Assembly (NCBI GenBank): GCA_951406725.2
Contig: OX597819.1
Location: 46,562,001 to 46,626,000 of the forward strand
Length of the DNA: 64,000 nt
Reading direction: 5' to 3'
Source of the DNA: Octopus vulgaris
Lineage: Eukaryota
Positions 16,301 to 54,340 of this stretch are shown here, piece by piece. The notes under the pieces are model-generated. The model worked only from the letters and a program-made list of their open reading frames with translations. It searched no databases and was not told the origin of the DNA. Positions within the stretch are counted from its first letter, which is position 1. Each line of letters starts with the position of its first letter. The position numbers and the translations under genes were made by a program.

Positions 16301-16334
16301 TACGGGGAGGTGTATTTGGTATCAATCTTTATTT

Positions 16335-16440
16335 TGTACAACGGCCGTTTCGACCCATCCAGCTACTGTCCCTTAGGAGTGGTACTCCGTTCAGCATGTT
16401 GCATAGCATGAATTTTGCAGTCTGGCTCTCATCAGGTACA
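16335..16440 (-). ncRNA. Type I hammerhead ribozyme motif with enlarged stem-II loop
   Basis: UGUAC-CUGAUGA-GAGCCA...UGGGUC-GAAAC-GGCC-GUU-GUACA, followed by AAUAAA. Confidence 0.72.
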
Positions 16441-16543
16441 TCCGTACAGAAAGGTGTGTCTTACTAGAGATCCTGCATTTGGGTTGTAACAACATGACAC
16501 CCAAATCTCGCGACCTTTAGCGAGACACAACTTTATATGTGGA

Positions 16544-16649
16544 TGTACCTGACGAGACACAGACAGCAAAATTGATGCAACACCACATGTTGAACGGAGT
16601 CCCACCCATAAGGAACAGTAGCAAAATGGGTCAAAACGACCGTTGTACG
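16544..16649 (+). ncRNA. Hammerhead motif, mirror copy, probably inactive
   Basis: UGUAC-CUGACGA-GACACA...UGGGUC-AAAAC-GACC-GUU-GUAC; GAAA has become AAAA. Confidence 0.55.
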
Positions 16650-16884
16650 AAATAAGGATTTATACCTAATCCCTTTTTCTCGTTACCCCAAAAATTATTA
16701 TCATTATTATTTTAACACTGCAGAGATCCTGCACTAGATCCAACGGAAATAAACCCCGACTGCGGATGACACCAGGTAGCCCAATCTGCGCCAGTGCTCT
16801 ACTCAACACTTCAACACACTAATCGACATATACTCATTAGACCAAGATATCAAATATGTATATATAATATACAGGACTTAATAT

Positions 16885-17254
16885 AAATTGTCTTGAGGTT
16901 TACAGCCAAACGGCTGGGTGGATTCGCGCGAAAAATGGCACACATGTGGAGACGGGTGCGTAGATTGGAATGCGGTTTGTATTTTTTTCTTAGCCCCCAT
17001 ACTTACCGAGAAAATCGATTAAAAATTTTCTAATGGAATTCCCCTCTTTCTTCTGCTGTTAAAACAACCAGTTGCTTAGAAGCTGTTTCCTGGTGGGGTG
17101 GGGTCAGGAAATGTTCATACAGCTGGAGGCTCCAATTGAAATAGGGGACCCAAAATGATCTGGTTGAGAAACGCTGTTATAGATTATGCCGAGCCAAAAA
17201 CGATCACAGCCACATCATCCAAACAGACCGGGTGAAACCGGGCTTAGCTGCTAG
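16885..17254 (+). mobile_element. Non-autonomous Helitron-like element, copy 1
   Basis: Subterminal AAACGGCTGGGTGGATT; 3' hairpin CCGGGTGAAACCGGG ~8 nt before a terminal CTAG (17251-17254) followed by T. Confidence 0.68.
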
Positions 17255-18200
17255 TATAATATAAATTGGACATGGGCGATCGTTGTATTCTTTCTTGTCT
17301 TGAGATTCACAGCCAAACGGCTGGGTGGATTCGTGTGGAAAATGGTACACGTGTGGAGACTTGTGCATAGTTTGGAATGCGGTTTGTATTTTTTTTCTAG
17401 CCACCATACTTACCGAGAAAATCGATTAGAACTTTTCCTAATGGAATTCCCGCGTTTGTTACGCCATTAAAACAACCAGTTGCTCACACAGCCGGCATAT
17501 ACCATTTCGCTAGCAACAAGAGGAGTACGAGATAATTTTTGCTATGCTGTCTCTCTTCTTTCACCTCTTTGTAGGGTTAATAATCATAATCTTTAGTTAC
17601 AGTTTCTCATTCAAACTGCATAATAGGCAGATTTGTCGGATTAACACAGTAAGGTGTTTTGAGGGAGATTTGGCTGCTGTTTCTACCAGGTCTAGCTACC
17701 ATGTAGAGGTCTGAACTTTATTTTCATTCACATATTTGCATTTCAAAAATTTAACATAATCTTTTCCATAAATCAACAATCGTAAACACTTACACACACG
17801 CAAGCACACACACACACACACACACACACACACACACACACACACATCCATTTCATATATCTTCTTTCAATTTCTGCTCTGTGCAAATAAATTTTTACGG
17901 ATAAAACTGCTTACAAAAATAGGGATTATTGTATAATTTCTTTCTATCCTCATAATTTATTCAATATTTTAATGATTAGACAGAGGTCCAATAGAATAGC
18001 TCTCAGAAACAGACTACGTACACATTCGTTCTTCACAACTCCTGAAGCTGTTTTCTGACAAGTGGGATGAGTCAGAAAATTTTCATACAGGGGACCCGAA
18101 AGGATGAGGTTGAGAAACGCTGTTATAGATTATGCCTAACCGAAAACGATCACAGCCACATCATCCAAACAGACCGAGTGAAACCGGACTTAGCTGCTAG
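17255..18200 (+). mobile_element. Non-autonomous Helitron-like element, copy 2 (tandem, ~560 bp extra internal segment)
   Basis: 17295-17484 matches the 5' part of copy 1; 18044-18200 matches its 3' part and ends GCTGCTAG. Confidence 0.65.
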
Positions 18201-18386
18201 CATATATATATATATATATATATATAATTAGAAAAAAATCCACGTTTTATCAATTCAAAATGAACAACTAAATTACACTATCTAGAAAATTACATATAAT
18301 AGAAATATTATAATTAAAATAACAATAAAATAACAATGATTAAGTAAATTGCAAAAAAATAATATAAACGTATGTAATTAGTAGAA

Positions 18387-18491
18387 TAACGACACGTGTT
18401 TCGTGGCTATATTTAAGAAATGATTATAGTAAAAAAAATTAACAGTGGTAGTAAAATCACTTTGATATAAATATAGCCACTCATCACGTTA
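18387..18491 (-). ncRNA. Hammerhead-like motif with 12 bp perfect stem II (C3G variant)
   Basis: UAAC-GUGAUGA-GUGGCUAUAUUU...AAAUAUAGCCAC-GAAAC-ACGU-GUC-GUUA; lies between (TA)n tracts. Confidence 0.6.
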
Positions 18492-51351: not shown

Positions 51352-51591
51352 TTAATCGTATTGCTACAATATTTCTGGTGAAGTACACTGCTTTTGTTTC
51401 CATTCATTTAGAAAATAATGAATTAATACAAGAATTTAGTAATATAACTTCATCATTATTAAGCTGGTATTTGGAATATAAATTATTATGAAAATTTGAT
51501 GGAAGCTTTTAATTTAGATCTCTTTAAAATACAAATTTTGAATCATAGAATCAAGGCGTGTTCAGGGTTGCGTGGTATCAAAAGGGCTTAA
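51352..51591. mobile_element. Possible decayed piggyBac-type MITE
   Basis: TTAA at both ends; right end GGTATCAAAAGGGCTTAA; left end degenerate. Confidence 0.35.
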
Positions 51592-51871
51592 TGTTAAAGA
51601 TTAATATTGTATGAGCTTCGAATGGTTTAATGTTGATTGTGTATTCCAGGGCATTTTCGTCATAGAAAACGTTCTGCATTAGAAAAACTACAAACGAGAT
51701 AGAAAAAATGGAAACGAGATGAAAATCGTTAACTGTTCTTCTATACAGTAAACTTGGGATTCTAGTGTATTTTCACAGGTTTTTTTAAATAAATTTATCG
51801 TTCATGAAAAGAACAAAACTTTGGGAAATGCTTATCTGTGAAGTTCAATTCAATAGTAGATTCTAATTTTG

Positions 51872-52062
51872 ACACGCGGCCAGCAATTTCGGGGAAGGGT
51901 TTAAATCGCTTACATCGACCCCAGTGTTCCACTGATACTTATTTTATCGACCCCGTAGGGATGAAAAGTCAACTTAGGCGACATATGAACTCGCAACGAA
52001 AGGTCGGAAGAAATGCCGCTAAGCATTTTATTCCGGCACAGTAATGATTCTGCCAACCCACC
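51872..52062 (-). mobile_element. Nin/Deu-domain-like SINE (family C); other fragments near 1295, 22020, 39950, 44890
   Basis: Minus strand reads TTCATCCCTACGGGGTCGATAAAATAAGTATCAG; 44915-44950 reads CCTTTCGGGGTCGATAAAATAAGTACCAG. Both resemble the Nin/Deu central domain as I recall it. Confidence 0.62.
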
Positions 52063-52499
52063 ATCTATGAGGATCAATTTGATAATATGGACCTTGGAGT
52101 GAACCTTCGAAAGAAGTCGTTCAGTGAAGCAATTTAAGAGAAGATATTTTACTCAGGCAAATGTATAGTGTACGATGAATTATGCAACGTTTTGGGTTCA
52201 TCAGCTTGAAGGCCCGAGTTGAATCTACCTTTCTATACAGGAGATTTTATCAGCTGAAAAGCTGGAGTAATACGGAAATAATAAAAGGTAACTAATTCCT
52301 TTTTCTTTTCATTTGTAGCAAATATTGTGAAGGAAAGTGTATAATTCATTTAAGTGAGCCCAATGTGGCACTGCTACTTATTACATCAGCTTCTGGAGGA
52401 CGAAAGCCATACACAATCGCAAAAGGGGTTTTCAAAGTATAACATCAATCCAATTCTCTAAAACATTTATCTTGGTTCTCTAGTTTTTCTTCCTCACCA

Positions 52500-52695
52500 C
52501 TCGACAATATATTAACAATATTATTGTTGTTATTATTATTATTATCATTATTATTATTATTATTATTATTATTATTATTACTCGACAATATATTAACAAT
52601 ATTATTGTTGTTATTATTATTATTATCATTATTATTATTATTATTATTATTATTATTATTATTATTATTATTATTATTATTATTATTATTATTAT
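52500..52695. repeat. (ATT)n array with an 81 bp higher-order duplication
   Basis: CTCGACAATATATTAACAATATTATTGTTGTT occurs at 52500 and 52581. Confidence 0.9.
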
Positions 52696-53711
52696 TCCTT
52701 CTTCTAATTGCAAGTTTACTATTAGGTTTCCTTTAAAATTTCCAGAACCAGAGTCTACAGCGAAATTTAAGTAATGTTTTACAATCACAGATCATACCAT
52801 ACTTCAACTTGTACAGATTCACTGCGAAAAATAAATAATTTAGTCTTTATTTCGAAGAGGTCATGTGCAGAATGAAATAAAAATTTTATTACCAAAAAAT
52901 ACAAAAACAACCAAAATAAAAAAAAATGAAATAAATTTATTTTCTTTAAAATAAAATCCACTGTAATTCTTCAAAAATATTGCAAGAATTAATTAATTTT
53001 GCAGTCTTGAATAGTTTATTGCGTTTATTGCAAGAATTAATTTATTTCAATATTTCTAAGATGACAAGAAAATATTCACTTGTATGTCTTGAAGTCATTC
53101 TAACAATATTTAAAGACGAATGTTGTGTGTTTGTTTAACTGCCAATGAATTGGTGTACTTTTCACTGTCAACAGTTGACAAAAATAAATCCACCATATTT
53201 GCTTCACAGCTCAATTACTGAAAAACTCTGACAATCTTTATAGAATAATAAATAGGAATTGTTTATTTCGTGATTTGTATAACGAACATATTTAAATATT
53301 TATATTTATTTTATTTTTCTAAAACTGGTTTGGAAAGGAAGAACGAAGTAGAGTTCTACTCTATAGTAGTCAGATCTTTGTAATAAGCCAATTAGTTTTC
53401 ACCATTGCATTAAATTATCTTCGCTCTGTATTATTATAGGATTTGTAGGCCAAGTCCACAACTTTAGTTTATTCACTTACATTGCTAAAGTCTCAAATTA
53501 ATATCACAATTTCCATTTCCTTTCAAATTAAAATCAAAAAACATTTATACACACGTAGGGAAGTTGACAAAAGAAAGACACAAGTGTGTGTGAGTGGAGG
53601 AAGGGGTATTCTCTTCTAGTTTTAATCATTTAAAGTCTTCCTGCAAGGAAAGAGCTGCTTTGTAGAAAAGCTACAAACATCCATCTTTGAGAAGTGAATA
53701 ACAAAACAAAT

Positions 53712-54000
53712 TCACATTTTAAACTTGAGACGAGTCTTGCACATTTTTACTATTCCGCTTACAGTCTATATTTGTAATGTGCGTGTTAGCTGATTGATTT
53801 CTTATTTAGAAAAGCACAGCTTTCCCAGATGTCGCTTAGGCAATTACTCACAAAATTAAATGTACCATTTATTATTGGTATAAATATGAATCTATTTGTA
53901 ACCTGAGTAAAGAAGCTGGATGATTCAAAGCAGTTGTCCAAAGTTATCCTCTTTCTCTTTGATTTTCAAAAAGATATTCCCATCAGCATGGCAGCTGTAA
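53712..54000 (-). pseudogene. R4/Dong-like RLE C-terminal fragment
   Basis: SCHADGNIFLKIKEKEDNFGQLL...FIFIPII...VSGIVKMCKT, homologous to 36340-36610. Confidence 0.75.
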
Positions 54001-54156
54001 CAATATCTGTGTTTGGCAGGAGAGTATGCATGCATGTACGTATGTATATATATATATATATATATATATATATATATATATATATATATATATATTTGTT
54101 TATGTTTTCCAGTTTCAGCTCTTGAGCTGTGGCCATGCTGGGGCACCGCCATATAC

Positions 54157-54340
54157 ATATACTTTATTAAAAAGCAGCAAAGATATCACAAAACCTGTTA
54201 CTCAGAGTTTCACGTTCCCGTTCGTCGAACAGTTTTGTTCAGAATACAAAACTGTCCGAGGAACGGGAACGTGGAACTCTGAGTAACATATTTTGCGATA
54301 TTTTTTATGCTTTTTAATAAAGCATATTACTCTACCTCTT
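54157..54340. mobile_element. Fold-back element 4 with minimal hammerhead motifs
   Basis: Inverted repeat 54157-54327. Consensus CUGU-(C/U)CGACGA-ACG-GGAA-CGU-GAAAC-UCUGA-GUA-ACAG at 54195-54232 (-) and 54252-54288 (+). AAUAAA lies downstream on both arms; (TA)n follows. Confidence 0.7.

Follow-up and report, generated by a model that had tools for sequence, protein, structure and literature searches.

The stretch of DNA considered here, called the window below, comprises 64,000 nucleotides (nt) of the Octopus vulgaris genome (assembly GCA_951406725.2, contig OX597819.1, positions 46,562,001 to 46,626,000 of the forward strand); it is dense in microsatellites, has a guanine plus cytosine (GC) content of 36%, and contains four inverted repeats, or fold-backs, whose arms carry motifs resembling hammerhead ribozymes. 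The fold-backs are named E1 (at 16.3 kb), E2 (28.9 kb), E3 (31.9 kb) and E4 (54.2 kb). A first-pass annotation, made from the letters of the window, had linked them to the hammerheads in the pseudo-long terminal repeats (pLTRs) of Penelope-like elements (PLEs), and had proposed either a class of non-autonomous ribozyme retroelements moving as units or stereotyped abortive insertions.

Geometry of the four fold-backs

The inverted repeats, located by self-BLAST, lie at 16314–16670 (E1), 28885–29319 (E2), 31939–32555 (E3) and 54157–54327 (E4), within 3 bases of the positions given by the first-pass annotation. Arm identity amounts to 79% over 161 aligned bases in E1, 90% over 186 in E2, 90% over 298 in E3 and 88% over 81 in E4. 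Arms of different elements, compared pairwise, never scored above shuffled controls, in agreement with the claim that the four share no primary sequence, and no further copy of any of them was found elsewhere in the window. All four are arranged head to head, with the 3′ ends of the motifs facing outward, and none tail to tail; the inverted head-to-head geometry typical of PLE insertions is thus present in every case.

The left arm of E1 (16287–16472) has the ribozyme sense on the minus strand, its 3′ end pointing outward to a CA/TA run, and is separated by a centre of about 40 nt (16473–16512), which contains a short hairpin of its own, from the right arm on the plus strand (16513–16697), which passes into an unpaired extension of undefined length. 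These limits come from an alignment with looser gap costs, which stretches the arms to about 16287 and 16697, brings the left end up to the CA/TA run, and is the only source of the outer 24 nt of the left arm. A 12-mer is repeated near the E1 centre (16466–16477) and in the right extension (16722–16733), complementary in the ribozyme sense, and may be due to chance. E2 consists of a left arm on the minus strand (28885–29082) and a right arm on the plus strand (29126–29319) around a spacer of 43 nt, with the end of the right arm 4 nt from a TA tract; on the left, a one-sided extension of 116 nt (28769–28884, minus strand), probably a tail of the PLE type, ends at a short TA run. At the other side of E2 lies a perfect 58-nt palindrome (29301–29358), in which the terminal 20 or so bases of the right arm recur, inverted, across the TA run; its halves are 100% identical, against 90% for the arms, so that it is either a local inversion younger than E2 or an artefact of assembly.

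In E3, the left arm (31939–32236, minus strand) runs straight into a (TA)n tract, the centre is a spacer of 20 nt (32237–32256), and the right arm (32257–32555, plus strand), T-rich in its 3′ part, is followed by a one-sided tail of about 163 nt (32556–32718, plus strand) that ends at a TA run. E4, the smallest, has a left arm on the minus strand (54157–54237), a spacer of 9 nt, a right arm on the plus strand (54247–54327), and an extension on the right of 12 nt (54328–54339) that leads into a long (TA)n run. The extensions are unpaired and confined to one side in all four elements, as the first-pass annotation had it, while their nature as family sequence was demonstrated for E3 only. Its claim that all four abut TA-rich tracts holds for E2, E3 and E4, in which a TA tract of at least 4 units lies no more than 15 nt from an end (the chance expectation is 0.03–0.05 per element, to be read with the fact that the elements had been picked partly for this trait), and fails for E1, whose ends as first given are 65 and 186 nt from the nearest such tract.

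Hammerhead motifs, their decay and folding

Searches of the window with a type I hammerhead descriptor allowing 0, 1 or 2 core mismatches returned 2, 4 and 6 sites, respectively; over 30 shuffled versions the averages were 0, 0 and 0.43. With up to one mismatch, the four sites, three of which lie inside fold-backs, compare with none in any of the 30 shuffles; a stricter descriptor (stem II of 45 nt or less, no stem I mismatch), which returned a single site, was superseded by the looser ones. Type I hammerheads with a palindromic stem III are present in E1, E2 and E4. The left motif of E1 (16334–16441, minus strand) combines a canonical core with a branched stem II of 76 nt, a CGGCCG stem III and a predicted cut after 16340, whereas the right motif (16543–16650) is decayed, with a G12A change and a broken stem III palindrome. 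In E2, the left hammerhead (about 29032–28977) has a canonical core, a CGAUCG stem III and one stem I mismatch, and the right one (about 29165–29220) carries A15.1G. The E4 motifs are variants on both sides, with U4C and one further change in each: the left (core at 54228) reads U3, C4 and has a GGAA-capped stem II, and the right (core at 54256) combines U4C with A13G. The core is canonical in two of the eight arms, the left ones of E1 and E2.

E3 departs from this pattern in that neither arm has more of the motif than its 3′ half, GAAA-CAGCTG-UA (32157–32146 on the left and 32336–32347 on the right), and no CUGANGA 5′ core is found upstream of it within one mismatch in either arm. The majority letters of other E3-family copies, among 40 of the 132 alignment rows, do not supply a 5′ core there either; E3 may have lost the 5′ half of a long stem II by truncation. 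A hammerhead on both arms of each element, as first described, is therefore found in three of the four elements, and the reported orientation, left motif on the minus and right motif on the plus strand, holds for the hammerheads of those three. Across the unrelated families of the window the stem III palindromes differ (CGGCCG, CGAUCG, CAGCUG, CACGUG and CCGG). In a comparison with the Rfam model Hammerhead_1 (RF00163), which the first-pass annotation had suggested as a check, the E1 left motif scored 30.6 bits (E-value 1.2e-05), under the gathering score of 34, and the right one 13.5 bits; no hammerhead match was obtained in E2, E4 or the searched stretch of the E3 right arm. The same collection gave many sub-threshold microRNA matches on the fold-backs, and the 150 matches listed of 666 for the whole window are microRNAs, mostly on microsatellites, and uninformative. 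A metagenome scan with the E2-type motif yielded 12 loci, all of bacterial type and none similar to the window, which were taken as chance occurrences.

The two arms of the fold-backs differ at 4 of 33 invariant core positions, when 4.8 differences would be expected from whole-arm divergence, so that there is no sign of selection on the cores, with the reservation that these numbers are small. Whichever the direction of transcription, the sense ribozyme lies in the arm transcribed second, and forming the hammerhead fold inside the fold-back would cost a predicted 64–111 kcal/mol in all six arms tested. The earlier expectation that each transcript would hold one sense ribozyme within long double-stranded RNA is correct in this respect, and what it implies is predicted silencing rather than working twin ribozymes. 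As regards motif architecture, two unrelated hammerheads on the minus strand (16435–16351 in E1 and 18487–18402 outside the fold-backs) have stem II domains of 76–78 nt with extended or branched helices.

The E3 family in other DNA and the surroundings of the fold-backs

Of eight DNA or untyped sequencing runs from three organisms, none of them recorded as RNA (which has no bearing on expression), four had their contigs aligned to the right arm, spacer and tail of E3 (32237–32715). The numbers of aligned contigs per run (200, 461, 325 and 301) indicate a multi-copy family, with the proviso that contig depth on E3 is no measure of copy number and that uncovered bins (32237–32252 in four runs, 32381–32412 in three) do not mean absence. 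At the 5′ edge of the right arm (32257), the loose ends, taken from the 24 of 345 rows listed, comprise at least 8, 13, 13 and 11 contigs in the four runs; 17 of their last 19 letters match the spacer on the minus strand, and other, non-inverted sequence follows. Since these ends match the spacer and then continue linearly, the spacer (20 bases) must be extra 5′ sequence of the longer, left arm, that is, linear family sequence, and the copies do not share the centre of E3. At the other side, contigs span 32555 and reach 32715, which identifies the tail as family sequence, and at least five contigs of run X3 switch to a TA repeat at 32555, the point equivalent to the end of the E3 left arm; the E3 family therefore appears to have two alternative 3′ ends. 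A one-sided tail with two alternative ends is thus supported for E3, at a length of about 163 nt compared with the 30–40 bp of PLE tails. Three joints between opposite strands were listed (32453/32665, 32464/32644 and 32467/32641), each in one contig per run, of undefined direction and away from the E3 centre.

The first-pass annotation had suggested asking whether copies share the same fold-back centre and ends: the E3-family contigs do not share the centre, and the proposed class of ribozyme retroelements moving as units accordingly failed for E3, the one family compared with other DNA. Because the family runs linearly past the centre and into the tail, E3 is neither a unit with a fixed centre nor a miniature inverted-repeat transposable element (MITE), the terminal inverted repeats that bound a fixed unit common to all MITE copies being absent from it.

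Hammerhead-like fragments without an inverted partner also occur in the window, indicating that the fold-back is one outcome among others. The fragment at 18222–18540 (minus strand, core at 18487) has a C3G change, a 78-nt stem II and a CACGUG stem III and is flanked by (TA)n on both sides, as is a minimal one at 18570–18778 (minus strand, core at 18699) with U4C and a weak stem I; a third (54417–54660, minus strand, core at 54502) shows the U3-A8 core variant and lies between TA runs, one of them common with E4. Weaker fragments are found at 1739 and 22377, the latter with an 83% identical relative at 18935–19042. Within 18222–19042, three hammerhead-like fragments of three families are stacked in the same orientation on the minus strand between TA runs, the TA microsatellite having been used repeatedly as a landing site. 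Another inverted pair (47597–47848 and 48532–48763; 85% identity, 683 nt apart) was considered as a fifth member and rejected, as it consists of a dispersed-repeat fragment and a microsatellite and has no hammerhead. The dispersed short repeats of the window resemble an octopus short interspersed element.

The Pfam scan for a parent element covered 52 of the 157 high-complexity reading frames of the window, and among these gave two reverse transcriptase (RT) matches, one sub-threshold PAP2 match and no GIY-YIG match. The first RT match falls in an uninterrupted frame of 977 amino acids on the minus strand (57074–60004), with 49% GC against 36% for the window; its 3′ end, near 57000, bears a short tetranucleotide repeat, and its domains, an APE endonuclease and an RT, led to its rejection as a PLE parent and mark it as a long interspersed nuclear element (LINE). 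It looks like a young LINE, presumably of the CR1 type, and its base composition could point to a recent arrival from another host. The second match (37676–38008) lies among broken reading frames on the minus strand (35872–39072) that probably represent another, decayed LINE.

Origin of the fold-backs

PLE pLTRs carry minimal hammerheads that cleave with low activity and have a palindromic helix III, occurring mostly as single motifs, taken as truncated PLEs, or as dual motifs on opposite strands about 100–700 bp apart, and including a U3-A8 core variant (PMC4209133, Cervera and De la Pena 2014). The motifs of the window share with them the type I topology, the palindromic stem III, the U3-A8 variant (at 54502), the many unpaired copies and the spacing within the fold-backs, the E4 pair being slightly closer; they differ in the 76–78 nt stem II of E1 and the 18487 fragment, far above the 6–8 bp helices described for PLE hammerheads, in U4C on both E4 arms and in the missing 5′ core of E3 (PMC4209133). 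The U4C change is reported to reduce activity considerably in vitro and still to allow viroid infectivity (PMC3088659).

As to insertions, PLEs are reported with an adjoining inverted, 5′-truncated copy, a tail of 30–40 bp often at one end only, and a bias to (TA)n (PMC8557442); head-to-head is their usual arrangement, with the inverted pLTR shorter than its partner and a tail of 31 bp (PMC3846280), and inverted pLTRs and 3′ extensions are standard features for curating PLEs (PMC8969392). Biochemical work describes cleavage of AT-rich DNA, explains the tail as the interval separating two sites at which the RT starts, and found hammerhead cleavage dispensable for insertion in vitro (PMC11167929). 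Endonuclease-positive PLEs (Penelope/Poseidon, Neptune, Nematis and Hydra clades; PMC8557442, PMC3846280) resemble E1–E4 in their unequal head-to-head copies, one-ended extension, TA-run targets and hammerhead in the repeated 3′ part, whereas E1–E4 retain no open reading frame (ORF), have extensions of 12, 116 and about 163 nt instead of 30–40 bp, and are not assignable to a clade. Penelope families and Rfam hammerheads are present in cephalopod genomes (PMC13282606, PMC8967140, PMC6962438). Non-LTR retrozymes (PMC7229834; bioRxiv 10.64898/2026.07.22.740005), where LTR stands for long terminal repeat, are likewise ORF-less, PLE-related and of similar size, with a type I hammerhead; they are, however, head-to-tail tandems whose ribozymes on one strand release a monomer or circle. 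In E1–E4 the motifs are on opposite strands, so that no transcript has two sense ribozymes; the arms are inverted and there is no direct copy in the window.

From the geometry, the motifs and their decay, all observed directly, and for E3 also from the linear family sequence running through spacer and tail, we infer a PLE parentage. E1–E4 are very probably independent, dead-on-arrival insertions of different PLE families, decayed head-to-head copies of 3′ ends in or beside TA runs. All the evidence fits the connection with the pLTR hammerheads of PLEs made in the first-pass annotation, and likewise its option of stereotyped abortive insertions. The PLE endonuclease would nick AT-rich DNA, and the RT would copy only the last 80–460 bases of the RNA, including the pLTR hammerhead, after which a second, inverted and 5′-truncated copy would arise at the junction. 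Different 3′ initiation sites of the two copies may leave the extra tail on one arm, and different 5′ stop points may let the longer copy provide the spacer; the head-to-head geometry would by itself place the left ribozyme on the minus and the right one on the plus strand. The ribozymes would be passengers that later decayed at the neutral rate and that, if transcribed, are predicted to stay trapped in the hairpin.

Several observations weigh against this explanation. The extensions of 116, about 163 and 12 nt are all outside the 30–40 bp reported for PLE tails, and no tail above 40 bp was met in a partial search of the literature. Target-site duplications in the flanks of E1–E4 are absent beyond TA runs and words of chance length, and a TA duplication is indistinguishable inside a TA run. 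Endonuclease-positive PLEs are defined by an ORF with a telomerase-like RT and a GIY-YIG endonuclease. No PLE RT or GIY-YIG ORF linked to any of the four families, the association that the first-pass annotation proposed to look for, was found among the 52 frames scanned, although in truncated copies such an ORF would not be expected. The centre of E3 itself is covered by no contig, even though a 205-nt piece in run X1 matches the locus perfectly; breaks of contigs at centres are therefore possible, and fold-back copies may be under-counted. Because the family compared is without a complete hammerhead, the PLE parentage of E3 rests on the half-motif and the geometry.

It is improbable that at least one of the E1, E2 and E4 families is instead a non-autonomous fold-back retroelement, in which a founding inverted-pLTR insertion is copied as a fixed unit by PLE protein in trans, an arrangement for which there is a precedent in Adineta, where a pLTR alone sufficed to mobilise unrelated DNA in trans (PMC3846280), and in the PLE-derived, non-autonomous ribozyme elements known as tandem retrozymes. 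The comparison with other DNA leaves room for it, as it covers E3 only. Against it stand the presence of each fold-back as a single copy in the window, the centre not common to the E3-family copies, the divergence of the arms (10–21%) with unconserved cores, the unpaired hammerhead-like fragments of the same window, and the position of the sense ribozyme, always in the arm made second and predicted to be paired off. Such an element would be an inverted counterpart of the retrozymes, and the PLE lineages concerned would also start reverse transcription at sites 100–160 nt apart and have hammerheads whose branched stem II measures 76 nt; this fuller reading seems to us just as improbable.

The perfect palindrome at 29301–29358 suggests that local inversions may occur here, and single PLE fragments could have been made fold-back afterwards by template switching during host replication or repair, independently of retrotransposition; this is very unlikely, since all four elements are head to head and none is tail to tail, the E3 left arm stops where other family copies stop, which random inversion does not predict, and an equal shape is reported for PLE insertions with flanking target-site duplications (PMC3846280). 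The long inverted repeats, the lack of an ORF and the TA at several ends would equally suit MITE-like or foldback DNA transposons, with hammerhead-like words in the terminal inverted repeats by chance and TA flanks as target duplications of the Tc1/mariner type, and by their usual definition such elements share with E1–E4 a short, ORF-less body with long inverted repeats in AT-rich sites. This last alternative is nevertheless the most remote: the E3 repeat is not terminal, since family sequence continues on one side for about 160 nt after the repeat ends and also runs linearly past a centre that is not common to the copies; the motif scores lie above all shuffles; the extension is unpaired and one-sided in all four; and no target duplication is defined apart from TA runs.

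Read as independent, truncated PLE insertions, E1–E4 have a shape already published for PLEs, and they are most likely a tidy example of it rather than a new mobile element. Should unit transposition hold for any of these families, that family would be a non-autonomous PLE derivative of a kind not yet described. Hairpins of this kind are easily mistaken for MITEs or microRNA precursors, which makes the example useful for repeat annotation; PLE specialists may be interested in the tails longer than 30–40 bp, because these concern the start sites of the RT, and in the long, branched stem II of some of the hammerheads.

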